A DNA stretch of 58,998 bases, the filler included, from Sphacelaria rigidula (lineage: Eukaryota), in NCBI GenBank assembly GCA_964200075.2. It is 10 parts of 10 records of this genome, joined end to end, with 100 filler letters (N's around TTAATTAATTAA, not from the genome) between each part and the next. Parts side by side here need not be neighbours in the genome. Positions count along the whole stretch, not along the records: positions 47,281 to 53,089 come from CAXNAA020024286.1; 9 more parts are not named here. One strand, written 5' to 3'. A program made the position numbers and the translations under genes. Shown piece by piece: positions 5,742-56,090 of this stretch. The notes beneath the pieces were generated by a model. It had not been told where the DNA came from. It ran no database searches and saw nothing but the letters and a program-made list of their open reading frames with translations. The first letter of the stretch is position 1, and the number at the start of each line of letters is the position of its first letter.

Positions 5742-5811
5742 GGGGGGGGGGGGGGGCGTACTCATTTGTTGCTTTCCTTAGCCATTTAACCATTGACCAC
5801 CCATCCCTTGG
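5742..5811 (-). mobile_element. LINE 3' end with (C)15 tail, cut by contig end
   Basis: Reverse complement AAGGGATGGGTGGTCAATGG...AAGGAAAGCAACAAATGAGTACG(C)15 matches 51509-51562. Confidence 0.8.
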
Positions 5812-11854: not shown

Positions 11855-11887
<33 letters not shown>

Positions 11888-11960
11888 CTGGGTACTCATT
11901 TGTTGATCTCCTTAGTCGTTTGGCCCTTACCGCGCATCCCTTTCAAGACGGAGCACGGTC
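11855..11960 (-). mobile_element. LINE 3'-end fragment with (C)32 tail
   Basis: Reverse complement GTGCTCCGTCTTGAAAGGGATGCGCGG...AAGGAGATCAACAAATGAGTACCCAGA(C)32 aligns with 51496-51562. Confidence 0.75.
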
Positions 11961-12080
11961 GGGGGAGTTCGACGTTTTCTTTTCGCTTCGTTCCATTTGT
12001 TTTTCCCTTTTGGGGGTGCATGCATGCGGCCACCTCCGTGATTTGAGCGCGGCTGGGTTATGATATATTCCGAGGACCAG

Positions 12081-20219: not shown

Positions 20220-22057
20220 CTGCAAAAGCAAAGAGAAAAAAGATCAAGACAAAAAAAAAGCGGAAAAATGCAAAATGAGACAAATGTGTTCAGTATCAGG
20301 AAAGCAGGGAAGCCATCGTGCAGAGGGTGTGGAGAATAGGAGTGCGGTACGGAAAATTGATGGATTGTTCGTGGTTGGTTGGTTGACTGATTTGTGGTTT
20401 GATTTGGCCCATGAGGTGATCGATTTAGTGGAAGATCACAGCGCTCTTGTGGCGGGATGTGAGGTTTGTGGATTGGGATGAATCGTTACCCATATGCAGC
20501 TGCTAGCGACCGGATTGCAGTAAAGTACAAATCGGATGACGGATAAATCGAATATTTATGATGGCAACGGTCGGTGGAGGAAAGAGATAGCAGTCCAAAA
20601 AAATAAGATAGAACCTGTGGTACAGTACAGGACAGTACAGTATCGTCGAGTGTTCTCAGTAAAGCAGCATACGCAGCACTTTTGCTCCCCTCTCGCCCAT
20701 CTAGCACGGTGGAGGGGTGTGTGTACTTGTGAGCTTGCATGCCGAAGTCATAAAGATCACTGATCTCGCATCCCTACAAAGCCAAAAAAAAACGGAGCAC
20801 GCCGGGTTTTCGCCGGACCGAGCTCGCAATCAATCACCAAGCGCGAAGCGCCGTGATGCGTTCGGCGAATCGCATGAAGGGTGAGATGCACCCTGCTGAG
20901 ATTGTTCGGTCTCAAGCGTACTGTTCATCTTGCATTTGGACAGCAGCCTCCAATGAGTTGCTTCATTTTCTGGTATCGCCACTTCTAGAGACAGCCACGG
21001 CTCACACACCGCCTCATGGGTGTCACCATTTAAACACTACGTGGCACGATCATCCCCTTCGCGAGGTTTTCCCACCACCCCGCACAATATGACCTAGCTC
21101 GGGCATCATGGTTACCGGAAAAAAAAAACGCAAGAGCGCGAAAAAATCCGGGAATCTGGTTGCCTAGCTGACGCAGTGAGTGGCGTGTTCTACGACGTCG
21201 TTGCCAGCCGACGTCAACCCCATAGGAGTTCCGTTCCAACAAAGCTCGGACGGAGCACGCCGGGTTTTCGCCGGACCAGGCTAAGGGAGAGAGGGGGGGG
21301 AATATTAGTATAAAGTAAGGAAGGTATTATCGCTTACGTAAGTCGACCATGACAGTGGGTTGCATTTTTCATTTCTCCTGTGCCTGTGGTGTACCATTGG
21401 CACCAGAATAGAGAAATTGTACGCGAGGTGAAACGGTACAGACCTTGTTCATATTTTCGAGTACATGCTTGTTCGCGTCTGCGCTTTGCTTTGCACGTCT
21501 TGCTGCTGAGTAAATTTATCTCAACACCCTGGATGATGACAGGAGAACACATAGTCCAAAAGCGTACTGCGTACAGTACGTATGGAAATAAATCTCTTGT
21601 TTATTGCAATAGACGCGATACTACACGCCGTACTCTTTTTTGAAAATGATATCTTTTGTCCAGATGTCTTGAATTAAAAAATATTCCAGCTTCACGAGGA
21701 GAAAATTGGTCGTTCGTTGCACATCAACCGACTCTCCACGAATTTGACCGTGGCCGCTAGATAGATGTATGCACTCAAAGGTAAAATAAACCGAACGTGT
21801 GAAAAAAAACGCGAGGCCGATACGAGTACTCCAAGAGCCCGGTGTTTTGTCTCATGTTGTGCGAGACAGTTTTGTATCCATTTTTCTCCATATCAGGGCA
21901 GAGGCAGGCATGAATGCTTGGATTGCACGCTCTAAATGATGATATTGGATTCCAGTGAGGGAATGTGCTGCGTACAGTATCCACTATGCGTGTATTGCAA
22001 TAGACAATGTATTCCATACTGTAACCAGTCCACTTTTTGACGATGCCATCTGTTGAT

Positions 22058-26171: not shown

Positions 26172-29100
26172 ACCAGCCATGCGCGAAATGTTTGACGGAT
26201 TTCCGCAGGATGTGGATGTGCCAACATCAGTCCCCTGCCCGACCCCGGCTCTCATCAAGGGCTGCCCACTTGAGGTGTACCGCGTATTTGCGACCCAAGT
26301 TCATCATGCGGAGGGTGTGCGGCCGCTCTTGCTGACCGGGGCTCTCCTCCATCTCACCACCTGGGACAACTGCCAACCTGCGGTGGCCGTTTTAAAATAC
26401 ACATAGGAGCTAACAATGTCAGGGTCGTACACGTCCGGCCCATCTTTTCGGCGCCCACACACCTTATACCCTGGCGCCATGTAATATCCACCACGCTCGT
26501 GCGCCGTTATGCGCCTCGACAAATGGATGCGTATTTACGATACTGCGCATTGTCACATTTCACCTGAATTGGTTCCCCCAACCAATATTTCAGAATTACC
26601 TTCCGGGCGTACTACTTAAGGTCGGCTTCATGCTCCCACCGAGGAACATCCAAGCCGGAGGTATTGTACCACCAACTCATCACCCACACCCGGCGACAAC
26701 CTGTGTTTTACCCATTTTTCAGGGAGTATTCGATGCGTGTCCAACTCCCTCGTCACATCCTCCGCTGTTAAATGTAGAGGAGGCGACAGTTCGGAGTATT
26801 TGTTCAGCACGTACTGACTCAACCCCCAAGGCAAAAATCTCGGCTTGTCCGGCCCCTCATGAGGATTATAGCACCGCTCACACCTTGCCATCGACAGCGT
26901 GGAGTTCATGTTGACTCCTGGTTCGTTTCGACGAAGCTCCAGCTAAAACAAATTTTTACCCACCTGTTCACCCTCCGAGGTTGCCCCCGGCCCTACCAAT
27001 AAAATGTTGAATGGCCCCGTCCAACACTGAGTCAGCTTCGCCGACAGAGCCAAAGACGTCCGGGCTGAACTCGCCACCACCTGCACTGCCTTACCTCCCG
27101 CGGCGATGGTGCTTTTATTATCGACTCATGCCGAGATAGCCCCTCCACAAAAAGTGCACGTGAGACGGTGCGACAAAACGNNNNNNNNNNGACAAAACGG
27201 CTGCGATCCCACTATTGGACTCGTTCCCAGCAATTTCGCCCACATGAGAGGCGTGGAGCGGTTCGAAATTAGCTATTGCGCCCAAATAAGTCGCGTCGTG
27301 CAGCACGAAACCAGCTTTAACGGCATCTATGATCATCACCTCCGTGCACTTTCTTGGCCGGTTCGGGGGGGGGGCTATCTCGGCAGCAGTCTATCGCACA
27401 CAAACACTCACTGCCCCGCTTCCCATTTGGGCCAGCGGTTGGCCATTTCCTCAATATCCTGGTTCTTGGCCTCATGTTTCGCTCTGAAGAAAAATCATCT
27501 TGCCTCACCAACTCGCACGCCTTTACCTGCCGGTCTCTCATCAGCTGAAGATAGTCCAACTGGTCGGCTTCCAAACCCTGATGCCCCCGCACCCCCCTAC
27601 CTTCTAGAATGGTCATGGGCATGCGCGGGTAGCGTCCAATCTGTACCTCGTTTGGAGATAACCCGGTGCCCCTACTGATATTATTGTTGTGGGCAGAGAT
27701 CGCGTGCATTAGAGACTCATCGCAGTTGCTCTGATCGTCCACCACCCAATAAGACACCATTTGACATAACGTTTGATTCAACCGCTCTACCATCCCATTC
27801 GTCTGAGAGTGATAAGAACTCGTGAACCATTTCACCGCACCCATCATTTCATAGACCGACTTACACCCGGTGGAAGCGAACTCCGATCCCCGATCCGACA
27901 AGAACGTGTGCGGGCAATCCTATCGTGGTACGTAATCTCCCACTATGATGGTAGCACACCCCGTAACCGAGTGCTATTTAGCTGTAATCGCGTACGCTTC
28001 CGCGTGCCTACTAAACAGATCCACCATGAGGAAGATGTGTCTGCTGCCCCGCTTTGTTTTAGGCAACGCGCCCAGACAATCGAACGCCACCATTTACCTC
28101 GGCCGACTGGGTAGTGGCAGCGAGACCAAAGGTCAACGCACCTCATAAAGACCCGATTTCTTGGCCTGGCGTGAATAGCAGCGTCGAATCCAGAATTTCA
28201 CACTCTCCTTCATACCGATCTACCAATAAAACCTTCGCATCAAAGAGAGGGTAAATGTTTCCCCAAGGTGCACCGCCTCTTTGTGCGTCTGGTCCATCAC
28301 CCAAGGCCTCAGCATCAACGGGATATACGTTCGCACACGTTCGTCTCCCAGGTATCGCTCAAATACCCCCGGGTTACGGTCATCTGAATCCAAAGGCGCA
28401 GGAGTCCATTTTTTCACCAACAGTTTGCTACCGTTCGCTAGCTCAAACAGTTGTCCTTGTTTCAGCAAAGCCCTCAGTTCCTTCACATCGATACTACTAT
28501 CCACTGACTGTTTTTCTCCCTTCGAGAGTACCGTTGTCCCCTGTGAGAGGTACACAGTAGTCGTACGAGCGGTCAGATTAGTCTCTTGGATGTGCACCCA
28601 GTCACCCGCTGACTTGGCGCACAAACGCTCACCAAAATTACATGCCTCCGCCGCCTCTAAAGTGGGCGCGGGGGTACCACAACCGTCCTCTTCGGCTGAT
28701 CCAGCCTCACCGTCCGTGATTACCAAAACGTCCCGACCCGCCATCTCGTGCAACAAATATTTCCCCACTTCAGTCACCGGGCAAGCATGTAAGCACAAAC
28801 CCGGTTCCCACTGCCCACACACCACATCCGTAACCTTCGGGGAAAGAAGGCGCGAGTCATCTCTCACAACTTTTGGTCCCTTCCAGACTGCCATCGGTTG
28901 TCTTTGCATGGTTTCATTTTGGATTTGGTCCCATCGGTCGTGCGCAACTTCTGAAAGTGTCAACGGTATGTCCGAGTGTTCTCTCCCCCCCCTTTGAACT
29001 ACACCCTGAGGAGGAAGCCCATCCAAACTAGAACCCTGGGGAGAGCCAGACCCGCCGAGGAGCCCATCCAAGCCCGCATCATGGTGACGTTCAAAGCCAC

Positions 29101-29380
29101 GAGGCACGATACCGCTTGCTCCAATAAAATAAACATCCACATCAGCCGGGTCGGTGATTTGGAACCACCCGCTAACATCTTCAGGGCTATGGGCTAGCGG
29201 CAGACGGGACAACATGTCAGCGTTGGAATTAGAAACGCCCGGTTTGTAGAAACTTTCATACGTGTATGCGCTGAGACAATCCTGCCACCGGTGAACCCGC
29301 GGCACCTTCTCTGCCAAGCTAAAAAGACTGCGCAGAGGTTGGTGGTCACAATAAATTTGGAAAGGCACCCCATAGAACAA
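26172..29380 (-). pseudogene. Ty3/gypsy pol, decayed: end of RNase H, long insert, integrase (Zn finger, DDE core, GPF), chromodomain and C-terminal extension
   Basis: Motifs YCDHQPL...NSNADMLSRLP; THKEAVHLG...RRFYW; SDRGSEF...YHSQTNGMVERLNQTL; CWTGPF; PEKWVKHR...VQYL and WEHEADL. Several stops and frameshifts plus a MITE insertion. Confidence 0.9.
27123..27391. mobile_element. MITE with ~20-bp TIRs and 4-bp TATC TSD inserted in the integrase
   Basis: GACTCATGCCGAGATAGCCC versus rc GACTGCTGCCGAGATAGCCC. TATC at 27119-27122 and 27392-27395. Removal restores the frame KWEAGQ*VFVCDNKSTI. Contains a 10-N gap. Confidence 0.85.
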
Positions 29381-32300
29381 AGACCTGATCCGGTGAGAAC
29401 CCGGCGTGCTCCGTCCCGGCTTTGTAGGGACGCGCGGCCAGTGGGCTGATGNNNNNNNNNNNNNNNNNNNNNNNNNNNNNNNNNNNNNNNNNNNNTTAAT
29501 TAATTAANNNNNNNNNNNNNNNNNNNNNNNNNNNNNNNNNNNNNNNNNNNNCCCAATTCTGAGTTCTCTAGTCCAATACGCTAGATCTACGGCAGCACCA
29601 CAGGACAATGGAGCCGGGGCCGAAGATACTGCAGATGAAGCATGGGGGTTGCATAGCCTCAGGGCAGTGCCGCAACAGCCTGTTGGCAGACTTGGTCCAC
29701 GGCAGCAGTTATTGAGGATATCACTAATAATGCGGCGAAAACGCAGGCATCCACACAGCAGCAGGGTTGTTCGTTCACCGTTGCGCATGATTGCGGCTTC
29801 ACAAATACAATCCTGAGGACTGAATAAGCTATGTGGGTGTCCTAGGGGCGTACCAGAGCCTTCAACTTCCTAGAGAGGGCTCGTAGTCCCTATATTGTCG
29901 GGTTTCGAATGTGCCTTTACACGGTCCCGGTGAAAGCCTCCGGCACACCCAAACGCACGCAGAGAGACCGACACACGTGTACCCGAGGCCAATCAGGGCA
30001 TATAAGGATGGTGAACACATATACTGAGTGAGTTTGTGCTCCAACGAGCGTCAGGGGGAAAATAAACTGTCGCGATCCTAGGATCGACCCGAAAATAGGA
30101 TTTCTAGTGATACGTGTGCGTTTTTCGACCTCATGACGCCAGTATCGCACTATGGCATAGGGACAGAAAGGCGGCCCGGAATATGGCCTGTCGTACAAAG
30201 CTTTTAGGTTGGATGTACGCCAAAATTTGAATGAGTAATGCCACTTTCCGTGGGCGGCACAAGTTTACACGGGGGCAAAAAATTCCTCTCTCGTTGATAC
30301 TGCTCTAAAGTGCCTTTTGTCTCTAGTAAAGGTCGCACCCAGAGTGCGTCGGTCGGCACCCCACTGAAATACTAGCGAGAAATGTCCGCTGCAACCTGCT
30401 TTCTGTGTGTGTCTGTACCTTACCCGTGCCCCCCTGAAGGACGCATCGATTTGACCGTTTCAGCCCCCCCCAAATCCTGCTCATCAACCACTACTCCCCG
30501 TCTACGTCTTGGAGCAGACCATTGAAACGGGGGGGAGTGGTGTCATTGATGCTGGATGATCACGTCGCCGCTTGTGCTCAAAGTGCTGTAGAGCATGAAG
30601 TGTGAGGTCATTGGGAAGATGGGTGCTATACCGTTGCTCCTGATATATCAGCCTGTGCGGCCCAAACGTTTGTGCTGTGATTTTTGTTCAACCCTTGAGA
30701 TTCGTCACCAATACCCTTTAACTCACCGACCGGGGCATTGGGGTCCTCGTCAGCGCATCTCTACATGGACGAATTTCCTTGGGTTCGATTGCCCGCAGTC
30801 AACTTGAAGTACGCATTTGCGGTTGGTTTCGTTTGCTCATGGTTTTCACGAAATTGGCCGCATTTCACGGACGACTAACAGTTGAACAGGCACTCAACCC
30901 TTTGACCGCGGTGCAGGTGGTCCACCTGGATTACTCATACTTTTTTCAAGTGAAAATTGACGCCGATTCAGCAGGTGACCTACCCTCCTCGCGGTCTACA
31001 GGTTGAAGGGTTATTTTTTCGGCAGGAGTATGGAATAAGTATGTTTCCCATCCCATTTTGTACTCTTTCCGGGATGCACTACTTGGGGAAGGCTAAGGAG
31101 TTGCAGACAGCGCATGGCCACGTCGGGTATGCCCTCCTTCATCCATTTTTATTTCTTTGGATTCCTTGCCTGCTGTACGAAAGATCCGAATATCTGTGTC
31201 AAGACTTGAATCGAATATGTTCAACCGTGGATATGGGGGTAAGAAGTGGGGTATGCTCTGCTGCTCAACTGGTACAAACACTGACCTCGTGGTTCATTCA
31301 TGAATATCCGCGTGAAAAAGTGTTCACTGGCTCTTACCGCATACGGTCTGGGCAATGGGAGATGATGCGAACGGGAAGATGTTGCGAAATTGTGGGGGGG
31401 CACATGGTGAGGATGCCGCTAGGAAGTTGTACATTTCTTCGGTGGAAAACGACACTATGTGTGCGTACAAACTCCTCTTGCCTCTTCTCAGGATATCTTC
31501 TCAACTTTCGTCTGGGCCGCGGAGCGTGCTCCGCTCTTACTGTGGCTTTGTACGTGACGCACACAACTGTTCCCGGTGCACCCAGTGCAAACATGCGGCG
31601 CATCTACGATAACATCACCCAGATCCAGCGGCGTAATTAACTGATTTTCGGAGATTTCCCCACACTAGCCTCTCCGTTTCGCACGCCCCTAACGACCCAT
31701 CACGGCCCAGCACCAACGAAGGACCCGCGTCACCTTCTTCCCTACATCCCAAGGAGCATCACCATGCTTTTATTCGTCTGAATTTGCTTCATGTACATGG
31801 GGGAAATTGTCAGCCGAGAAAAAATGGGGGTTTCTTCATCGGACTAGCCTGTACAACTACTGACTGAGATGGTCATCCAAACCCCAGCCCTGTAACCGTT
31901 ACGCGCTGGATCAAAAGACACTGTTACGAACATGACCTCAAATCCATAGACTGTACAACAAACAAGGCACCAACACCACCACGGTCTTGTACCTCCGGAA
32001 ACCTGCGGATTGGATGAGTGTGTGTGTGTCCTCGCCATCAATGCCCACCGCGAACTCTTGACCCAGTGTCGCCTGCGCGAACATTCGTGACATTCGGCGG
32101 CAGCGACGTTCAGTCGGGTGTAAGTCGGCGCGTTCTGTACTGGGTGCGAGATATTCGGACGATCTTAGATCCCTGCGGCGATGATTAGGCTGCCGATGTG
32201 CATGTTCCCTAAATGCTCAGCTGTGTAGGTGTTCGCCTATGCTTTGTTTGCGCAAAAGCTATGGTTGAGATGGGTGTCCTCCAGAACTTTGGGTGTGCGT

Positions 32301-37304: not shown

Positions 37305-40300
37305 ATGCCGCACAGAAATAACGCTGGCTCTTCCCCTCAATTGGGAAACCAACCGCTTCGCCGGACCCGGAGTCGAACTACTGGCGGTTCGAAATCTTTC
37401 AAGAAGGGTGGCACGTCACCTTCAACTCATCGCCGCACGTATGCGAGCGCTGTTCGATCTTCGGGATCTGAAGACCACATTTCGAGCGAATCTCGTTCTT
37501 CAAGGCTTGAAGACAAGACTTTGATGCGGAGACCTGTTCTCTCATGTTCCGACCCGGACTCAGAGAACATGGTAGTGCAACCGGCCGAGTCATTGGTTCC
37601 TGACGAACATGTCAGCGAGCCCATAACGGTGGATTCCATCGCACACCCCTCGCTGGCCCCTGCTCTCCCGAATCCCAATGTGGAATCGGGAGTTAGGATC
37701 GCGCCCTCAGTCGAGTCGTTGCCCCTGGACACACGTGTCCAGCTTGGCCCTGTTCCGGTTGCTTCAACCGTGGCACCCCGTCGCTTGACGGCTGCCCACT
37801 CTCGAGATGATTCTGTCCCGACGAAGCGCATCGCTTCTGGAGCAAGGGACTTTGTCACACGGGCTGCTTCCGTTACGGACCCCCTTTGCACGACTCTCGA
37901 TAGTCCCATGCGCCCTACTGCACAGTCCAATGTCGGACCGGCAGTTGCAGCCATGCATGCTGCCATGCAATCTCTGCATCGAACCTCCTCGGCGTCGTCG
38001 CCGTCGCCAGCGCCAGCCCTCATCGAGGCATTTACGGCTTTTTGCCACGCAACGCTCCAAAATCAATCGGCGTCTGCTCATGTGCAATTCGATGATGATT
38101 CTGCACCTGCCACGCCCAAACCCGTACGTTTGGCGTCCCGTTCGGCGACATCACGCCCCCCGTCCGGCACTCATGATAAATTCAATGAACATGAGTCCAG
38201 CCCTTCCTCAACGTCGGAGCAGAGCCTTACTCGCGCTTCTGACCGGCGCCGCACACCAAGACTTGGCCACGACCACGTCTCCCGTTCTGGCAGTCATAAG
38301 GGCAACTCCCAGCAAAGCTTGACTTCATCACGCGTTTCTACACACCCGAAAAGCGTCACTCATGGATACACTTACGACGGTAGTTCACGTCATAGCTCCA
38401 ACTCACCACGCGCTCCGCAGCGCCAGGTGGATGCTAATCATGAACATACTCACGAGGATGCCTTGCGGCACAGATCACGGTCTTCGCGCGTTCACTCACG
38501 CTCGAAAAACACCGATCATGGACCCTCGCGCATTTCTCCTGCTCAGTAATTGCCACACAGCCGTCATGTACGCAATGATTACACTGTACATGCTGATGAT
38601 ATACAAGATATTTTTTCGGACATGTCACCGGCTCTGAAACCCTCAATTGAGGGATCTGGCCGCACCTCATCGCACAAGCGACGACCACGCACTGACCGCG
38701 AACCACCGTCCCGTGCCGACGCTGCGCTTATTCGTTCTCTGCAACAACGTTTGACAGAGTTTGAACGACAACTCGCAACAGCAACTATGGACACCAAGTG
38801 CACTACCGCTGCTGCTAAGCCTACGAGGGAGACCACCAACGCCGCTCCCACCACCGCCGCAGCCGCCACTACCGTGGTCACTGCGCCTTCTGCCGCAGCC
38901 ACTGCAGCCACGGTCCCAACTCCTGCCGCCGCCCAGCCTGCAGTAGACACAGATGCGGATAGTGGTCCCACCACTGGCCCTGTCGGGGACGTCTCCGTGC
39001 GCTCGCCTCCTTCGGTGGAGGATCTTCCTCCGCTCGGCGACGAGCATTGCCCCACCGGGCTTCTGTTGAGGTTATTCAAGGGCCGCCTCCGCGCGGAACA
39101 AGAAAAGCTCATTCATGACTGCGTACCAAGCCCCGGCACTAGCCCGCAACATACTAGACCAGCAACGCAATGCTGACGGGGCTTCCGCCCGCCTCCGTTT
39201 GGAGGAACATGCTGCCAAGCTGAAGGATTTTCAGCGACAGGCTTCAATCGCCCAAACCACCAAGAGGGCGGCGCACAGGGCGTTGCAGGAAGGGCAGACT
39301 GCAGTTTTGACGGCACAAAGGAGGGTTCGCGAGCTACAAGATCATGTTCGGCGCACTACGCAAGAAGCAGATTCGTCGATGGCGCGGGTGACTCACCATC
39401 AAGCCTCCCCGCCGCCTTCCGCAGACCACTTGCTTGACGCTCGACCTCCTCGACAGCCCACGCCCACCAGGTCGGACTACGTGATACCACGTAAGTCCGA
39501 TAGGGCGTCATCTGTCGCGGCCACCGCCGCCCCCACGCCGCCTCGTGCACCTGGTCCGGCGGTCACTGCCAGCCACACCACAGGCTTGCAACTTGCATCA
39601 CACGAACGAGTGTGGCTTTCTCGGTCTGCGGCCGACTATACCGGTCCCTTCCACCGAAACAATCACCTGCACTGTTCCCGCCACGCTTGGAACGCCATAT
39701 CCCAACGCATGTTAGCCGTTATTGGTGACTACGTGGAACAGGGCGGCTTCTTTCCGGACGACGGCGTGTCGGCGATCACCTTGGGCTAACTGGTCCTCCA
39801 GGCGACAATCGGCGATAGTCCGCATCTCCACCGGTACGTCGACACTGTCACCAACCTTTTTGCGGCGCTACGCGCCGCTTCTAACTCTGATCCCGCCGCG
39901 ACTCTCCCCGACGATAACGAAGATAAAGATGGGTGGACCACCACGACCTCCGATTGCCGGGGCCACAAGAAGAATCACCGTCGCGATGACGATGACAACA
40001 ATGGCGGGAATTCACGCTGCCGCCATGGCGGTGGAGGACCCTCTTCGGGCGGTTCCGGACCAAACCGCCCGCCCCGCAAGCCGAAAGGCAAGGACACCGG
40101 AGGTAACTCGTCCGGATCATCCGCATCGGCCTGGAACCGGTCCGGTGCAGATCTTCCCGCCTCGGGCTCGGAAACCCCCAGGCAAGCGGTTCCCAAGTTA
40201 GCTGATGTTTCGGCTCGCATTTTAGGTTTGTCCGATACGGATACACCTGACCGCCCTTTGTCTTCTACTGCAGCCCGCGCCTTAGCGACGGCTGCGGCTG

Positions 40301-41204
40301 ACAAAGACCGTTCCGAAGCTAGAAAAAAAGCAGCTTCCGATAGAGCTGAGTCTACCCGAGTAGCTGCAATACAGACACAGTATATTCAGATGGATGTGAA
40401 AAAACTCTGGCACATCAAAACCATGCCTGCCGCGGATAACGAAGATTCGGGCCAGTTTATTTCTGCCCTTATCACGTCCATCCGCCGTACTGTTTGTCAC
40501 ATCCTTCACTTGGTGGATGTGACTGGCACACAACGTTTCGAAAATTCCGACTGGGTAGAGGGCTGGCAGACGCCCTTGCACAAAGTAATGCATCGATCGA
40601 TCAGCCGCCGCTCTCCCGACCTCTCTGCTTCTTTGACGCAGGTTCTCGACGGATTCTTCGCGGAGATGGATCAGGATCGTTCCCAAGGGAAGACAGGCCC
40701 GCAATTACTCTCTGATTTGGAAAGGCGTCTCATAGGCTACTTTGACAAAAGCGATCAAGCCAGCATCACCCAGAGGCTGAATTCTTTTGTCGTCGCATCT
40801 GATGTCCCCTTCGCGGATTATCTTCGCGAATTTAAGCTTTTGGTTTCGGGTACGACGGGTGTCGGAGGCCAGAATGGACCGAGCGATGCAACGTGTCAGT
40901 CTTATGTCCGCAATAGCGTTGCTCAACAGTATCCGGCTCTGATGCTGTCGTTGTTTCCGGGTGTCTTGGCGCATCGCGAGGTGCCTTACGCCTCCGTCGA
41001 TACTATGCGATCTCCTTTTGTACGCCAAGAGAGTAATCTCACGCCTGTCATACGTGGCAAACCTTCAACGTCTGTGCGTTCACGACCTACGGTTGTGTCC
41101 TCCGCTCATGCCCATGGGGCTCGTGGCAGGAATTTGAGCTCGTCTCGCGCTTCATAGACCCCCGACCCAGTCGCCGGTTCAATAATTCATGTTCAGAGTA
41201 CGAA
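37305..41204 (+). pseudogene. Very long gag-like ORF of a retrotransposon (~1,300 codons; stops at 38547, 39787 and 41155; one frameshift near 39130)
   Basis: ORFs 37305 and 38550 share a frame, as do 39115, 39790 and 40228. Intronless. A disordered S/P/T/R/H-rich N-terminus and a coiled-coil-like segment precede a helical capsid-like block, ITQRLNSF...FADYLREFKLLV...YVRNSVAQQYPALM. Confidence 0.65.
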
Positions 41205-44980: not shown

Positions 44981-46046
44981 ATTTTTTCTTTGCCACACTT
45001 TTTGCTTAGATCATCGCAGTTGCCTCTCTCCTCCCTCATCTTTCGCCGTTGCTATTTTTAGAGCAGACGAAAAAAAGCCCCAAATCTTGGGAGTTGAGAA
45101 TTTTGAGTCAGCTTGCAAATAGTTTCCAGCGCACCCGGAAATATCGGCATCAACCATTCCTCCTTACTTGTACATCAGTTAACTGGACAATGCCGACCCT
45201 CCACTTAGTGCTATTCTCTCCAGGTAGCTATTCTACTCAATCTAACGTCAAGACCGAATGTTAACACACCAAATACAGTCCCTTCAATTCCTCCCTCTGC
45301 TCCCCCCCCCCCCCGCGCGTCAAAGTCAATCCGGTGCTACCAAATCGTGCTCGTTTTCCTCCACCCAAAAGNNNNNNNNNNATTCTACCGCCAAAACCTA
45401 ATTTTAACACCCCAAATACCGTCCCTTCAATTCCCCCCCCCCCCCCCCCCCCCCCCCCGGCGCGTCAAAGTCAATCCGGTGCTACAAAATCGTGCTCGTT
45501 TTCATCACCCAAAATGCTCTCAACGCGTCCTGTTTTCGTCCTCGCGCGTTCCCGAAGAACTTGACGTTGATTCCCCTCCTCGTGAGATGAACATCAGCGG
45601 CGGATGCTTGCGATGGCATTGTTGTAGGCGGGGACGGCCCTGTGTTGCAGTGTCGAGACGTGATCAGAAGCATGAATAATGAGGGGAGTGGCGGAGGGTA
45701 AGTTCTCAGGATAGTTGAATCGTAGAGACGGGCCGATGGTGGCGGTGGGGCGTGAGACAGACGACCAATCTCCACACTCCTTGGCGGGTTTGACATGAAC
45801 TGCCTGACCAATGACATCCGCCATCAAATTTGAACGCTATCAAATTTGAACGCCTTTGTACGTGACAGGCCAGTAGGGAAACCAGTCCATGACTGCATGA
45901 GGGCGTATTTTTAGTGCACTTTTTTTCATGTTTTGCGTTGTAGAGAGTGTGTGCTAGCCGAGCTTTCACTCGAGTGAGGTTATACAAAGTTCTCTCCCTC
46001 GATAGACCAAGGGCATCTACTTGTTTTGCCCGACCGTTTCCTCCAA

Positions 46047-46275: not shown

Positions 46276-48485
46276 ACTCCCAGGACTTGCACCTCAAGGA
46301 CATCCGCCATGCTAGTGCTCGTTACTGTTGTACTCCACGTCACATCTGTGTCTGCACAGGATCACCTGTGAATTGAAGCCGACAAAATCGTAGCGTTGAA
46401 GATCAACATCGCGTTCGTTTTCTTTTTCCGTTGGTTTAATTTTGTGGGGGGGTGTACTCATGATCATGCATGATTTTGTCGGGGGGGGGGGGGGGGGGAG
46501 GGTCGCGGTCATTTTAAAAAATATCAAGATTGAAAATACCACAGAGCAGGGGTNNNNNNNNNNTTTTTTTTGTTTTTTTGTGTTGTGGTGTGTGGGTTTG
46601 TATTTGTTGTTGTTTGTGATTTTGGGTGGGGGGGGGGGGAGTGTTGTCCTCGTATCTCTTAAATATGTTCATATTCGATATACTCCAGTATCGAGGTGTT
46701 CGGGTAGCAACATTCAAGTAAGTGCAGCAGATGGAGATGAAAGCACCCGAGCCTGTCACTTGCTCGTCGGAAGATGCACCGTTGAAGACCTGGCGGGCGG
46801 CTCAAGTATCTCTCATCATGAGTACCATCAGCTCTTCTGATACTGACGATGTGATTACTTGGAGACGCCAGGGTCTCCAACGGTGCAGCTTCCAATGACG
46901 AAAGTTGCAGGCTCGGGCGCTTTCATATCTATTCTTCATGCCATGTTGCTGCCTTGCCATCGTAGCATCAACAAATGCACCCATGGGTGGGACGACATTG
47001 TACACCCCTCCCTCTTCCCCCGCCTCTACTGAAAAAACGAATCAAATTCCAACTTTCGAGAATATGGTGTGCGGCTACGGAGGCGCGCGCGGGGGGGGGG
47101 GGGGGGGGGGGGGGAGTGGGGTCCAAAGGACCGGCGGGGGTTTTTGGGGAAACCGCGTTTCAAAAAAAGCTTGGGGAAAANNNNNNNNNNNNNNNNNNNN
47201 NNNNNNNNNNNNNNNNNNNNNNNNTTAATTAATTAANNNNNNNNNNNNNNNNNNNNNNNNNNNNNNNNNNNNNNNNNNNNGTGGGGAAAGCACTGTTTCA
47301 GGCTTGAGCCTCATCTCGAAGTTAAACCTCAATTCTCACAATTTGTTGTTATACGCTTCTCAGTGTCAGTTGGCATCGAAGCATTAGGGTCCAGGACGGC
47401 AGGATCGCTAACGGCAATATTATTAGAAAAAAATCTAGAATTTGATAAATCAAGATAGATATGCTTTCGTGAGTACTCTAATATAATACTATTGAGTTCC
47501 GATGTGTCGCAGAAAACTACGCAAAACATGCAACAATATCTTTTTCACAAGTCCCATACGGGCACGACAAAAAGCGGGGACGCTTCGCACGAAATCGAGG
47601 TTTAAAAGAACACACGGGTCCCGAGGAAGGAAGGGGGTTGAGCATATATATGGCGAAACTAATCATGCCACGGTACGGGTTGCACATTTGGGCCCAGACT
47701 TTTCTCATTAAGGGGCTCCTAAAGCTACCGTCTGCACGAGAATATGGGCCAGGATATTTTCGTTTCCAAACTTCATGCGAGAAATAGCCAACCCCACTGG
47801 AACGCTAATCGTGGCGTGCTGTCACGTATTCCGTAATAAATCTCTCTTTTTTGGATGAGATGAGTTCCTGACCATTGAAACCTTGGGGATATTGCGTGCA
47901 ATCCTGCCGTGGCATGACTCAAAGATCTATAGAATGAATCTATAGGATATTAGCGTGAAGACAATAGTTCAGCCCACTTTCCCAGGCCAAATTTTCGTAT
48001 TGGTGAAAAAATAAGCCTGGATTTTGTGAGAAACGGGAAAACAAATTCCCGTTCACGTGTCGCTTCTGCCTTCGTCTCACTCGCCGCCAAGACAATCGCG
48101 GCCCTATTTTGCCTTCCCCAAAACGCTTCGTTCGGTACAGACTATCAATAATGGGCCTGCAAATGCGACTGCATAGTGACAAGCTTGAGCCCCTCGCCTG
48201 ATGCTGCTGAACGCTCCCCTCCTCCCGGTGTATACAAGTCGCGGTTTGGTACCCCGCTTCCCTAACGTTCATGAGTGAGAGTTCATGCCCAAAGTACTGT
48301 TGTAGTGTGGCCGAAGTAGACAAGCCGCAATCTCTCCCCGCGACTTTTTTTTTTCGGTTCTCGATTGGGGTAGGAATGAGCGTGCTGTTGCGCAAGACCT
48401 TTTCCACCTAAAGCTTTATTTAAATAGGCCGGCTATTTCTAGTCTTGGTTTGTAGTGTTTTCGTTTGGTTTGATTTTGTTCTGGT

Positions 48486-48603: not shown

Positions 48604-50337
48604 TTGCTTAACAGCTTATGTTATGTGTCTGTTCCACTCTCGTGTTTTCTTTCCTTTCCTTCATCGAACATTTCCGTTTCGTTCTATCTCGGGTTCGTCT
48701 ATCATGTGACCCCAGCTGGTTCCTTGGATGATGAGTCAACGTGCGACAACCAATCGATCAGTCAATGTCGTCTTACCACGAGCAACAATCTCGCTCATAT
48801 TCTACTTGTAAGCCTAATGAAACGACAAGCACGTAATAAAGCCACAAAAACACCCGCTTTGGTGCTTCTCCCACCTCAACTGGCCCCGACTTAAATTCCG
48901 GTTACCTACTGTATGAGGTATTTCTCTTGGTGTCACGTCCATCATCCAATCGGCCTGGCGTCGCGGATACGCTCCCCCTTCCATCGAAAGGAAACGCGTA
49001 AGTACCAGAACGCCACGCACACAATTAGTTGTTGGGGGTCTAAAACAACGAAAAATAATATGAAAACGCAGAACATGAACACGAGAAAACGAAGAAAAAA
49101 CTTGCCTGCTGAAATGCCACGACCTATGATCACGTCATGCTCCATGCTGTCACTTACGCGCGAGAACGGAAAAAGACACAAGAAAGGTCAGATTGCCGTA
49201 CTATCATGACCTCAAAGAAGAGGTCAGTGCTGGAAATGCTACGGATGGATATCGATCACGTCATGCATCATGCAGCCAACGCCCGAATTTGCGAAAAATC
49301 GCCGACAAGACAGACTTATACGATAACGATACCCCAAAGGAGGCGTACTTGACAAGGTTCAGTAACACTGCTGGTAACATGGCGAAACTATACGTGTAAC
49401 TGCTCGTGTTTCCCCCCCCTTTTGCTATCTTGTATGCACAGAACAAAGAAGGGGCGCCAGGAACTCCCGAGGAAATACGCCCGGTTGTCGTCAAAGCCGC
49501 AACACATCTTCAAGGCAGGCCACCAGCCGGGTAATAACGAAGGCTGCCGTAGATACCGAAGATATAGATTAGGGAGTAATCCCGAGATAGGAAGGGGGGG
49601 GGCTGTTCGGTTCCACGAAACAGGAGGAATCGTGGGTGTGTTGTGCGATCCTACTCAGTCGACGTGCGCCTTTACGCAGCTGAAATGTCGTGGGGCGATG
49701 CTAATGTGTGCGTTGTGTTGACACAAAAAGAAACGGCCTCATGAAAATTGCTTGTTGCAGCGGCACCTTGAAGTGATGTGGACTCCTTCGTGCAAGATGT
49801 GGGTCATGACCCCCCCCCCCCCCCTTGCCCCCAATCGGGAGATTACTTCAGCTAAGAACGGAATACCGCAGCAGCTTACTGGGTTCAAAATTCCCCGAAG
49901 GCAAGCTTTGGCCCCCGGATACTCACCCCTAGAGGGTGCTATTAAGAACGGGCTGGGGGGGGGGGGGGGGGTATATCCGGGATACAATATGTTTCGTTAG
50001 TCTCAAGCGGTAGCCGAATGATATATGTGTCATTTCTTCGACGTTCTCCGTAACAGTATCTTATTTGGCGATATGGTGCAGAAATGAACGCCGGGGCCGA
50101 AAAGGGGGGTACCATGAAAGCAGGGTTGGGGTGCAAGGTAGCGGTGTTACACTGCTTAACTCTCGGTTTGTATTTCTTCCCCCCCTTCGGCGGAGCAGGT
50201 CGGCAGCAGATCTTCGAATCGAATGCAGCGGTTCTTGTCCCTCTCCGGAACATTCACGCTACGGCTGCTACTGTCTCTGTATTTTTCGCCATGACGGGAC
50301 TTTGGTTTTATAGCCCCTCCCCTACACATGCGCGGTA

Positions 50338-51582
50338 CAACTGCGCAGTACTCGTCTGTGACGAATATGAGAAAAATCCGGTAGAGCTTAAATGGAAGTG
50401 GGGAGAAGAGGAACTGCCGATCGCAGACCAGTATACGTACATTGGCGTAGGGATCTCAAGCAACTGTTCTTGGGATGCACACATAAACAAAGTTATAGAA
50501 AAGGGTAAGGCACGGATAGGCAGGATAGGACGTGATCCTCAGAGACTCGCACGTAGACACTAGGTTTAAGAGATGTATCCTGATGAACGTGATTGTACCA
50601 AAACTGGAATATGCAGGAGAAGTATGAGGGGGGAACGTCAAGTTGGTGGAGAAGTTGGAAACAGTACAGATGGCAACAGCTACGGAAATATTTCGATGCT
50701 CGAAAACGACGAGTGATACAGTTTTGAGAGCAGAGTTGGGAATGTACTCACTTAAAACAAACATAGACATGAGGAAATTGCGATGGCAATGTACGGAAGC
50801 TTCAAGAACATGCAGAGGAACAGATTGCCAGCTATAGTTGATAAGGCTGTATTGAAGAACAGTACGAAAGGGAGGCCTGGAATAAGGTGGGATACAGAAG
50901 TCGAGAAAGTATGAAAGGAGATAGGACGAAATCAAGACGAAATACTGTCCAGAGGTGAAGGTGAGGGGTACAAGACAACACTAAGAGACATGGTAGAAGT
51001 AAGGGAGAAAAGGAGCGCTCAGACGCAAAGTAGACGAGAAAGAACGTCTGAAGATATACGGGGAGTTGAGAGAGAGGATGGGGATGAAAACATATTTGCA
51101 TGATCCAATGGACGCTGCGAAATAACTGAAACTGCGATTTCGGGTGGGGAACCTGGACCTGCCAGAAAGAAGAAAGAGATATACCACACAGAACTGCCCC
51201 TGTTGCAAAGCAATAGAGAGCAGAAGTCATGTAGTGGCAGAATGTGAACTATACAAGGGGAAACGAGACGTGCTAGAGAGGGAAATGCGGGGTGTGAACG
51301 AAGGTGGCATGAAATCGTTTGATGCATTAGACAGTATAGCCAAAAAACGAAGGTTGTACTAGGAGATGGATGGTGGCCACAGACGGCGAAACAGGACGGG
51401 GATAAGATGTGTAAAAGACCGTTGTGTAACGCACGGAGGAGACGTAATGAGCATCCAAATATTGGACGTGTCTCTATTTGAGAGGAGTAGAAACGGTGCT
51501 TTGTCTCGAAAGGGATGCGTGGTCAATGGTCACACGACCAAGGCAAGCAACAAATGAGTACGCTCCCCTCCTCCCTCTCCCA
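50338..51582 (+). pseudogene. 5'-truncated LINE (RT thumb and C-terminal region with Cys/His knuckle; RTEX-like by inference), ending TGAGTACG plus a C-rich tail
   Basis: Motifs YTYIGV...WDAHINKVIEKG, VIVPKLEYAGEV, KLETVQM...VLRAELG and CPCCKAIESRSHVVAECELY. Frameshifts and stops present. The last frame ends ...TKASNK*, with the TGA inside TGAGTAC. Confidence 0.9.
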
Positions 51583-52214: not shown

Positions 52215-53051
52215 GTAAGCCGGATAGATCGGAAGAATTCATTGCAGTCGACGTCCCCCGTCTTTTGAACGGAAGCTTCTAACCTGGAACATCCCGAAAG
52301 AGGGTTGTTCAGAGCGGGTAGGAACAGTCGTGTATAACAAACCGTTATTATGCGTTGATTTTAACATCCCAGAGTAGTTCGTAGAGAATAGTAGTATTAT
52401 AGCAGTTTTGTATGAAAGATTTAGAACAATAGGGACACGCGATTATGCGTTCGCATTTATACATGAGACCTACAATAATAGAAAGGGGTTGACGGCTACG
52501 AGGCCGAAGGATTGATCTCTTAGCTGCACGCGTGGGTTCAATTGTCCGTGTATAAACGCATGCGTGCCCGCCGCAGACGTTCATGTTGATTATTTCATAC
52601 AAATCAACACTCTTTTAGTATCGTAAGATCCGAGAAATATCTAGCATTTCAGAGGGGTTGATCGATTAACCATTCGGCTGCGAGGTATTTCGGAATCTTG
52701 AGGAATATCTGCAGATGAATCCACGCATGGAAATCAAATCCCAGCAGAAGGAGCTGGCATTGGTTAGTATACAAAATTGCTGTATATATTATTGTACGAA
52801 ATAAAAAGTAGCACCATTCGGTTACCGTCCGAATCTGCAGCGAAGCAGTAGAACAGGTAACCGGCAGGTATTGTCGACCTGGATACGTTTTTTTTGTTGA
52901 CTGTGTCTAGGGCTTTCTCAGTCACATCTTATGGACACAATAATGCACAGGGATATAGCGGTAAGATATGACGCCACGGAAGCACTTGAACATGAATAGT
53001 AGCCATTAATAGCAGTTTAGGACCTTTTTCTCCCAGGAGTCATCCTGCGAT

Positions 53052-53089
53052 GGGGGAGGGGGGGGGCGTACTCATTTGTTGCTTGCCTT
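53052..53089 (-). mobile_element. LINE 3' end with C-run tail, cut by contig end
   Basis: Reverse complement AAGGCAAGCAACAAATGAGTACG-C9-T-C5; the first 23 nt are identical to 51540-51562. Confidence 0.8.
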
Positions 53090-53189: not shown

Positions 53190-56090
53190 TCAACGGTCAT
53201 CATCCTGCTGATCACTACATAGCACATCATGTAGGCGATATTTCGTCACAAGCCCATTACTTTCGCTGTCATGCCCGGTAGGGACAACGTTGTTCTGTTT
53301 GGGATGGCGACGATGAAGGAGCACGGTATCAATTCGTATCCGCTGGCGTTGGATAAGTCACACCCGCGTGCTGTGCCGGTGCAAACCGGCGTGGAAAACC
53401 CCAGCTATCTTGCTGCGAGGCGTGTGATCGTATCCATTATAACATTCCAGAGCGCCAATGAGGAGGAGGCTCCCGCGGATGAAGCGGTGGAGCGCTTGGT
53501 CGATCGGGGGCCCGACATGTTTATGAACCCAGCGGAGGAGAGAGGTGCAAGAGAACGTGCGCTAGAGGATAGCGTGCAGCAGACCGAAGAGGGGGGCCTG
53601 AGCGCCGATGGCGCACATTGTCTGCATGATATTTTGGCTCGTCGCGTGGATACATTTCGTCGTGCGTTGCGTAGTGACCCGCCAGGGCGCGTAGAGCTCA
53701 CGACGGTGCACCTCAAGCCACAGGCAAAGACTGTGAAGGCCAAACCCCGACACTACGATCCGGTGAAGGCCGGGTGGCTTGCCTCATGCATTGAAGCGTT
53801 GGTGGCGTTTGGTTTAGTGCTCAGGAACATCTAGGCTGTGTGAGCGAATCCAGCGATGGCGGTGCCGAAGAGGCACACATTCCGTTTCGTCAGTGACTAT
53901 CAGGCGGTGAACGAGCAAGTGGAACAGTCTCCGGGGGTGATGCCAAGCCAAGAAGACATGCGGGAGTTGCTGGGAGCCCAATGCTTCGGCAAGTTGGACC
54001 TGCTACAGGGGTATTGGCCGATGCCTTTGGCGCCGGAGGCTCAGGGGATCTTCACGATCGTCACGCCTGACGGTTTGTTACGTCTACTTGTGTCCCGCAG
54101 GGCGTGTTGAACGCCACGGCGTATTCACAAGGTGGGCTGACTGACACTTTGCGAGGGCTTCACTGTAAAGTGTGGGTGGATGGCGTTTTTTATTTGCTGA
54201 AACCGAAGAAGCACTGTTTGCTTTGCTTGACGAAATTCTTGGCCACTTGGAGAGTGTTGGTCTGTTCGTCGCTGCGCATAAGTGCACATTTTTTGCCCGC
54301 GAAGTGGTTTGGTGTGGTAACGTGTACTCCAAGGGGACTGTTTAACATGGTCCCGTCCGCCTCCAAGGTTTGAGCAATATGCGACGTCCTCAAACCACTA
54401 GTGAGCTGATGCAGTTTCTGCAGGCGGTGAATTGGTTCCGGACTTCGCTCCCGCGCATGGTGGACGTAGTTGCGCCGCTTCGTGTGTTTTTGGAACAACC
54501 TATGGTCGGGGCTTCGCGTTGAATCAAGCGGGTGGCGCGTAGTCGTACCATCCCAAAGGACGTTTGGACGGAGGAATGTGTACGGACATGGCGTGCTGGG
54601 CAAGATTTGGTGGCGCAAGCGGTGCCGCTGTATCATCCTTGTCCAGGGTGCATTGTTCTGATGTTCCCAGATGCTTCGGATTTCCACTGGGGTGGTTTTT
54701 CAACGCAGGTACCTGTAGCCGAGTTTAGTGGTGGCATTGCGCTAGAAAACATGTCACACGAACCGTTGGCTTTTCTGAGTGGTAGTTTCAAGGATTCACA
54801 GTCGCGGTGGGCGACAGTTGACAAAGAAAGTTTCGCGATGGTCGATACATTTCGAAGGCTAGAGTACTTGCTTTGGGGTGGTGTTCGCATTTTCACGGAT
54901 CATCGCAATTTGAAATACATGTTTAACTGCGAAGAGTGTGTCACATCGGCGACGAATGGCATGGACAACGGCTTGAAAATTGGAAAGGAATGCTCGGCCA
55001 ATATCGGTACGCCATCAAACATGTTTCTGGAGGGCGCAATTGTTGGGGAGATCTGTTGTCTCGCCGGGTGAAGGTTTCTACCGGGCCTCTTCGTTCTGTT
55101 GCCGTGTACAACCCGTGTGATGTCGATGATTCGCTGCCCTCGTTAGATGTCCTTCTTACCGCGCAATGCAAAACACTCGGCGACGGTGTTCATCCTTTTC
55201 CTACGACTTTCGGTCAAGCTGCTTTGGCTGACGATGATTTGATTCGCTTGCGTGTTGGCAGTAGTGATTTTCTGCGGATTCCGTCGGATGATAAGGCTCT
55301 ACAAACTCGCTTGATGGTGTGNNNNNNNNNNCACGTGCGGTCGGCTGGTCACCGTGGTGTGGCGCCAACTCTGTTTCGTTTGAAAGAATACTGTGTGTGG
55401 CCTCACATGGATTCCCACGTTCGCGAGTTCGTTTGCCAGTGTTTGCATTGTGTAGACACTCGTGCTGGTGAGATTGTACCTCCTCCGTATGGAGATACTG
55501 TGCATGGCACAGCGTCAGGTGAAGTTGTTCACTTGGATTTTCTGTGCGTCGGAAGTAGCGGACCTGAAGGCGCTAATGGTTTGCCCGATGAGGATGGTTT
55601 TCGGTACGTTCTTGTCAATCATGGATGATTTGTCCAATTTCGTTTCGTTGGAGCCGACCGAGGCTTGCACCGCCGAAGTTACGGCTAAGCACTTCCTCCA
55701 TTGGTGCAAGACTTTGGGGGTGCCGCGTGTGTGGGTTAGTGATACCGCCACGCACTTAAAAAATCGAGTGATCGCGCAGCTGAGCGACGCGCTCAAGGTG
55801 CAACACCAATTTGCTGTTGCATATACCCCTCGGACGAATGGTGCTTGTGAACGCATGGTAAAAGAGGGTATTCGTGCGTTGCGGTCCATTTTGTCGGAAC
55901 AGAGACGGCCGGTGTCTGAATGGGTTGATGTTTTCCCACCTGCTTAGTGGGCGTTGAATACTTCTTTTTGTGAACGCTACCGTAACACTCCGTATTGAGT
56001 GATGTTGGAGCGTGCGCCGCGTACCGCGTTTTCCGCGCTGGCGTCTGTCACTGGCGGCGAGTAGAACGTCGATGTCATGGATGCTGTGAT
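53190..56090 (+). pseudogene. Ty3/gypsy pol, decayed (protease end, RT, RNase H, integrase)
   Basis: RT motifs FGKLDLLQGYW and VWVDG (degenerate YxDD); RNase H DASDFHWGG...KESFAMV...TDHRNL; integrase AGHRGV...CLHC, SDTATHLKN, NGACERM. The RT-RH-INT order defines Ty3/gypsy. Multiple stops and frameshifts. Confidence 0.93.

Follow-up and report, generated by a model that had tools for sequence, protein, structure and literature searches.

The window, a stretch of 58,998 nt of Sphacelaria rigidula DNA made up of several contigs joined by spacers, carries truncated retroelement copies that end in runs of C (Table 1). The long copy among them is a decayed LINE that is about 82% identical to other copies in the genome and is interrupted by stops and frameshifts. 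Its reading frame closes ...VVNGHTTKASNK, and its terminal motif, at 51548-51561 on the plus strand, is followed by a G and then by CTCCCCTCCTCCCTCTCCC (51563-51581). As the initial annotation had stated, the stop falls inside TGAGTAC, leaving almost no 3' untranslated region (UTR), and the four copy ends that it had named were all recovered in place, on three contigs of the window. The 3' module of the long copy is mutated and folds differently from those of the L029, L019 and L121 copies, on which its delineation is based.

Table 1. Retroelement copies and associated features in the window
Feature	Position	Strand	Basis
LINE copy, 5'-truncated and decayed: end of the reverse transcriptase (RT) region and C-terminal domain with CxC..H..C motif	50338..51562	+	tblastn of full-length relatives P0003/P0112 spans 50342-51554
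C-rich tract, probably the target run, adjoining the long copy on its 5' side; clear target-site duplication (TSD) no longer visible	50314..50322	+	sequence, junction
3' RNA module, 66-67 nt: two hairpins inside a GTGCTY..GAGTAC closing stem; codes for the last ORF residues	51496..51562	+	folds of L029/L019/L121 copies
Bulged stem-loop, kept across the wider clade; putative RT recognition site	51522..51544	+	
TGA stop, 5 nt ahead of the C tract	51555..51557	+	likewise in intact relatives L121 and L123
C tail, decayed	51563..51581	+	sequence
Copy 3' end, cut by the contig end	5757..5811	-	92% to L121 3' end
C15 tail	5742..5756	-	sequence
Short copy (~66 nt class); C5 immediately 5' at 11961-11965	11892..11959	-	
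Tail CCAGA + C32, length possibly inflated	11855..11891	-	sequence
Copy 3' end, cut by the contig end	53067..53089	-	
C9TC5 tail	53052..53066	-	sequence
Sister family (non-autonomous), truncated copy ending CATGAGTACA + C17	4974..5243	+	
Sister-family copy, ~570 nt; C8 on the 5' side, decayed C-rich end	20722..21300	-	
Sister-family end, 20 nt, flanked by C18+GACAAAAT and C7+ACAAAAT; the C run is part of this target duplication	46439..46498	-	

Elsewhere in the window, decayed Ty3/Gypsy-like pol pieces with RT-, RNase H- and integrase-like frames (a by-eye assignment based on the ORF list) lie at 27317-29503 on the minus strand and at 53235-55947 on the plus strand. An open frame of 455 aa at 39790-41157 (plus strand), which comes after several low-complexity frames, may represent a retroelement's gag-like gene.

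The (C)n end across the genome

Tabulation of the bases that follow the terminal motif over the whole genome, a check proposed in the initial annotation, gave counts far beyond chance. The exact 14-mer end motif has 5,265 matches in 244 Mb (2,671 forward and 2,594 reverse), as against 4 for a reversed-pattern control in the same 244 Mb. At least six C lie within 0-6 nt downstream in 1,880 of the 2,671 forward matches, to which this count is confined, the reverse ones being multiply counted. A sample of ends was taken from the first 100 listed matches, from which 8 at contig edges and 1 inside another locus were excluded. Among the remaining 91, the base that directly follows the motif is G (71 ends), C (11) or A (9); beyond that base the first 10 nt are 76% C, and a C tract of at least four is present in 83 ends, the other 8 having under four C. 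A6 was seen in none of the 91, so that the poly(A) tail by which the L1 clade is recognized is absent from these ends. The reading of this family as a LINE that ends in (C)n in place of poly(A) is thus upheld. That the C run might instead be internal, with shared sequence or poly(A) beyond it, is ruled out by the absence of A6 and by the flanks past the C tract, which differ among the 91 ends except in insertions adjoining other repeats. A CCA-type tail was likewise rejected: the interruptions in the tails are T (49), A (19) and G (18), and no CCA rhythm is present in them.

Runs of at least 12 C number 29,113 in the genome, and 1,014 of these stand directly after the exact terminal motif (TGAGTAC plus one base). 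A recognizable copy adjoins 4 of 18 sampled window runs and 4 of 30 sampled genomic runs, one of the latter by an automatic match to an internal part of the element (L250), where by eye a decayed terminal motif precedes the run. On these numbers, the suggestion that many of the long C/G runs might be due to the element mostly fails, and it is not supported as the main source of the genomic C runs, most of which have no adjoining copy; the element uses an abundant target and adds to that target. Two arrangements in the window also involve C runs. At the start of a contig (41397-41467), a near-perfect inverted repeat with arms of A17 and T16 surrounds C9 and is possibly an assembly or library artefact. 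At 45250-45500, a 10-N gap is flanked by near-duplicate sequence with C13 and C26, and gap-flanking duplicates such as these may inflate C-run counts.

Proteins, relatives and the shared 3' end

An RVT_1 domain was found in three of the four genomic pieces scanned, with R2 and L1 ORF2 as the closest PDB structures. An RT of the non-LTR type, a fixed 3' end, variable 5' truncation and TSDs of variable length are all hallmarks of non-LTR elements, and all are seen here. The genomic copies are old, being about 82% alike, and the 86 that were measured range from 18 to 1,147 nt. At three extended loci of this genome, no intact or full-length copy was found; only RT pieces and, in L042, an endonuclease-like piece that has no Pfam match were seen. 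Using a 324-aa RT piece as the query, we recovered full-length relatives at 70-73% identity, in which one ORF of 1,328-1,360 aa has its APE endonuclease at the N terminus and closes on the same residues as the element here; Exo_endo_phos and RVT_1 were both detected in the relatives P0003, P0004 and P0112. Ectocarpus proteins are found in the clusters of two relatives, and two protein subfamilies with Ectocarpus members (CAB1110456.1 and CAB1109165.1) match both of the C-tailed ends seen here.

A scan of metagenome contigs yielded 79 loci. The distant relatives have (TC)n, (TTTCTC)n or (ATTT)n shortly past the stop, and in one a long 3' region precedes (AAT)n. The initial annotation's premise of poly(A) or AT-rich repeats at LINE ends is too narrow: the tails of close relatives are (TC)n and (TTTCTC)n, and poly(C) is the variable tail in its one-letter form. 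A quick tree was built of 95 rows, which cover 75 of the 79 loci (L128, L136, L183 and L192, with <250 aligned residues, were left out), with tails labelled by eye. In it, the C-tailed elements group with the Ectocarpus proteins in a single clade (SH-aLRT 100), and the relatives around this clade have (TC)n, (ATTT)n, (TTTCTC)n and (AAT)n ends. The placement of the RT in a clade tree, as had been recommended, thus extends to this grouping and no further; the probable RTE-X-type assignment draws on the Ectocarpus annotation and on the grouping with Ectocarpus proteins. The Ectocarpus RTE and CRE elements do not match, as the ends here are (C)n rather than (CAA)n or (CA)n and the endonuclease is N-terminal rather than in RT-EN order. 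Related LINEs on metagenome contigs (L131-L140, L155 and L192) have long (TC)n/(TTTCTC)n tails, mostly within about 20 nt of the stop, and most of them share the bulged stem-loop described below.

The initial annotation could not tell whether such an end had been described before. A (C)n end with a C-rich target is already on record for Ectocarpus RTE-X elements, and the trait is hence not a discovery of this work. In the supplementary table MOESM3 of PMC12477816, RTEX-1_Ec32 is entered as 'single EN-RT ORF; (C)n 3'' and RTEX-2_Ec32 as '(C)n termini/TSD', both with the TSD given as 'C-rich'; they are Ectocarpus RTE-X LINEs with thousands of copies and a full length of 5.5-5.9 kb. As far as these entries go, they agree with our element in copy numbers in the thousands, in the (C)n 3' end, in the C-rich TSD and in a ~600-bp partner with ~60 bp of the 3' end at ~83%, and they agree with P0003, P0004 and P0112 in the single ORF with an N-terminal APE endonuclease and RT. 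The likeness is one of annotated traits, and the priming geometry, the stem-loop and the variety of tails are absent from these entries. The Sphacelaria copies, moreover, come from another genome, are older and decayed (~82% alike) and are dominated by copies of ~65 nt. We found no discussion of the (C)n trait in the main text of PMC12477816, whose FASTA supplements, like Repbase, may say more, and no report of a poly(C)-tailed LINE among titles and the openings of abstracts. What is added here is a description at the level of mechanism and the presence of one conserved stem-loop in a clade with differing tails, (C)n, (TC)n and (ATTT)n.

The non-autonomous sister family ends TCATGAGTACA(C)n, with 4,343 exact end-motif matches. 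It is ~570+ nt long, shows no ORF similarity and has 52 bp at 82.7% in common with the LINE 3' end. RTEX-N1_Ec32, listed in PMC12477816 as a non-autonomous element of ~605 bp with a '60 bp 3' end 83%' to RTEX-1/2 and a C-rich TSD, is alike in its size and in its sharing of the 3' end, the two having been compared by the table description.

Of the 18 ends inspected for the bulged stem-loop, 16 have it, and in all but one of these it lies 15-19 nt ahead of the tail. Over 14 aligned ends, 96.9% of the cells are paired, with 13 compensatory cells, as against 18-49% in slid controls; the pattern was derived from these same sequences and is absent in 2 of the 18 ends, and the shuffle numbers are therefore no independent test. 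Single-sequence folds of the module are no better than those of shuffles, and the folding z-scores are not significant. The relatives with (TC)n or (ATTT)n tails have the same stem-loop. A 3' stem-loop followed by a repeat tail is described for the 'stringent' LINEs, the repeat being (TGTAA)n in UnaL2, (TAA)n in I and (TTG)n in plant RTE (PMC3747384). By that description, the element resembles the stringent LINEs in having a conserved, covarying 3' stem-loop, common to its non-autonomous partner and followed by a simple repeat, and differs from them in its repeat unit, a single C, and in the position of the stem-loop within the coding sequence.

Insertion junctions and proposed priming

At 56 of 76 readable junctions, a run of at least five C lies within 30 nt 5' of the copy, as against 6.4% of random 30-mers. 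A TSD with at least four non-C letters was recovered at 32 of the 76 (mean 3.8, maximum 8, in 12 permutations) and none at the other 44 by this threshold; a few of the 32 are due to chance, and the copies are old (~82% alike). In the typical duplication, some C precede about 4-12 other bases, and the proposed check of where the TSDs lie relative to the run has thus been answered by duplications that include it. Copies are also nested in one another's tails (e.g., L212, L205 and L209), and in the tailless L008, L027 and second L034 copy GAGTAC meets the duplication directly at a short microhomology that contains C. More C are present on the 3' than on the 5' side in L096 and L098 (13-14 versus 3) and in L072 (7 versus 3), and L026 and L030 have 3' counts far above those of the 5' target copy, while L008 (17 versus 0) and L112 (26 versus 10) have more on the 5' side; run lengths drift after insertion, so that such counts are suggestive only. 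Given the 3 C at the 5' side and 13-14 at the 3' side of L096 and L098, we take the RNA to bring C as well. The initial annotation had offered tail and target as alternatives. Both parts of that choice are retained and the choice itself is not: the TSDs include the C run, some copies have an excess of C at the 3' side, and the C run is tail and target at once.

Taking these findings together, we consider it likely that the element is an RTE-X-type LINE of a brown alga, with one ORF comprising an APE endonuclease, an RT and a C-terminal domain, that inserts by target-primed reverse transcription at C/G homopolymers. Its copies end ...GAGTACG(C)n, are located in pre-existing C runs and are accompanied by a duplication of a few C and about 4-12 following bases. 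We propose that the endonuclease would nick the G strand within a G run, and that the freed 3'-G primer would pair with the GUACG(C)n end of the RNA, with the bulged stem-loop 15-19 nt upstream probably holding the RT at the priming site. A staggered nick on the C strand would then give rise to the duplication. As the duplication adds C behind each new copy, each daughter would receive C from both the RNA and the target, and the tail could be renewed in DNA with no need of a C-adding enzyme; slippage in the pairing might account for its variable length. The non-autonomous sister family of ~570-600 nt, with its homologous 3' end, is likely to be moved by the same machinery.

A parallel is suggested by mammalian L1, in which the poly(A) tail pairs with a T-tract primer. 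The L1 endonuclease is described as nicking 5'-TTTTT/AA-3' (PMC8565326), and the priming proposed above might be seen as the G/C mirror of that of L1. The two are alike in a homopolymer tail that matches a homopolymer target, a TSD that starts in the run, 5' truncation and, in one instance (L012), a 5' inversion; the element here differs in having C/G for A/T, a stem-loop of the stringent type, a 3' UTR of 5 nt and one ORF. Under the proposed priming, the APE endonuclease would be expected to have a preference for G runs, and the system is suited to ask whether base pairing between tail and target or a poly(A)-specific protein contact sets the target choice of LINEs.

Several junctions show further features. 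At the 5' junction of L008, some 61 nt ahead of the end of the motif, and in L011, a telomere-like TTAGGG separates the copy's 5' end from the target duplication, which suggests the addition or capture of telomere repeats. In L012:250-300, the 5' junction carries an inverted piece of the element's own 3' end within a perfect 17-nt duplication, as in the twin priming of L1. At L008, L043, L080, L088, L092, L123, L201 and L232 and at 53035-53051 in the window, C runs are followed by a common flank, (T)ATCGTAGGATGACTC or similar, which is another repeat starting at a C run and a recurrent target.

Alternative accounts of the C run and the 66-nt module

The C run could instead be contributed by the target only, the RNA ending GAGUACG(CC) and the 3' C runs being duplicated target that was lengthened later by replication slippage. 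Such an origin would suit the 5' runs that often equal or exceed the 3' ones (L009 17/14, L029 14/12, L112 26/10), as well as the eight sampled ends with short tracts; however, it is at odds with the far higher 3' than 5' target counts of L096, L098, L072, L026 and L030 and with the long repeat tails of the relatives, and we consider it unlikely. That the runs are artefacts of sequencing or assembly, of the two-colour poly-G kind, is scarcely credible. A few very long runs do stop at gaps or noisy sequence (11855-11886; L022 and L060), sequencing noise may have added to the length of the longest (C32, C60+), and the sequence past the C32 run looks like post-homopolymer noise. Nevertheless, the runs lead to unique flanks that are duplicated on the 5' side, the matches are equal in both orientations, and the (C)n end is annotated in Ectocarpus. 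Moreover, the same end with C8-10 is found on three contigs of other assemblies (L121, L123 and L128), and Logan contigs from four runs of three studies, one of these runs being maybe the window's own source, have loose ends in C runs to either side of the module. Because C runs are shared by these assemblies and studies, an artefact, which the initial annotation had named as a possible refutation, is rejected for the existence of the runs but not for the length of the longest.

As for the tail as a product of priming on C/G runs, a different origin is suggested by the shortest class of copies. Among the 86 measured copies, 43 are 56-71 nt long and 22 begin at base 1 or 2 of GTGCTC, the arm of the closing stem opposite the terminal GAGTAC, a pairing that is retained in both LINE subfamilies and in the sister family. 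With its 6-bp closing stem, one unpaired G/A and then CC..., the 66-nt module has the look of a tRNA, and it could be a tRNA-like RNA: excised at the foot of the closing stem, it would receive C from a host nucleotidyltransferase and, as the main template, be retrotransposed alone. If so, no class of mobile RNA derived from LINEs would be smaller, and the LINE tail would be an enzymatic poly(C). The starts at the closing stem, the excess of copies of this length and the preservation of GTGCTC/GAGTAC are what such processing would leave, but the sister family, in 27 measured copies, has no peak at 56-71 nt. An enzymatic origin of the C is further opposed by the lack of a CCA rhythm in the interruptions and by the (TC)n/(ATTT)n tails that relatives carry on the same stem-loop, which would not be products of such an enzyme. 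We accordingly regard this account as improbable, more so than a C run drawn from the target only, and retain target-primed insertion of a LINE RNA whose copies are truncated to varying degrees. A separate family of ~65-nt copies was also rejected: their majority sequence is that of 35 longer copies, with one site shifted (12/40 versus 2/35), and since the sequence is the same we treat them as truncations. On a plain reading, the excess at 56-71 nt, with its start at the base of the terminal stem, would be due to stopping of the RT, or to a hot spot of joining, at the edge of the module.
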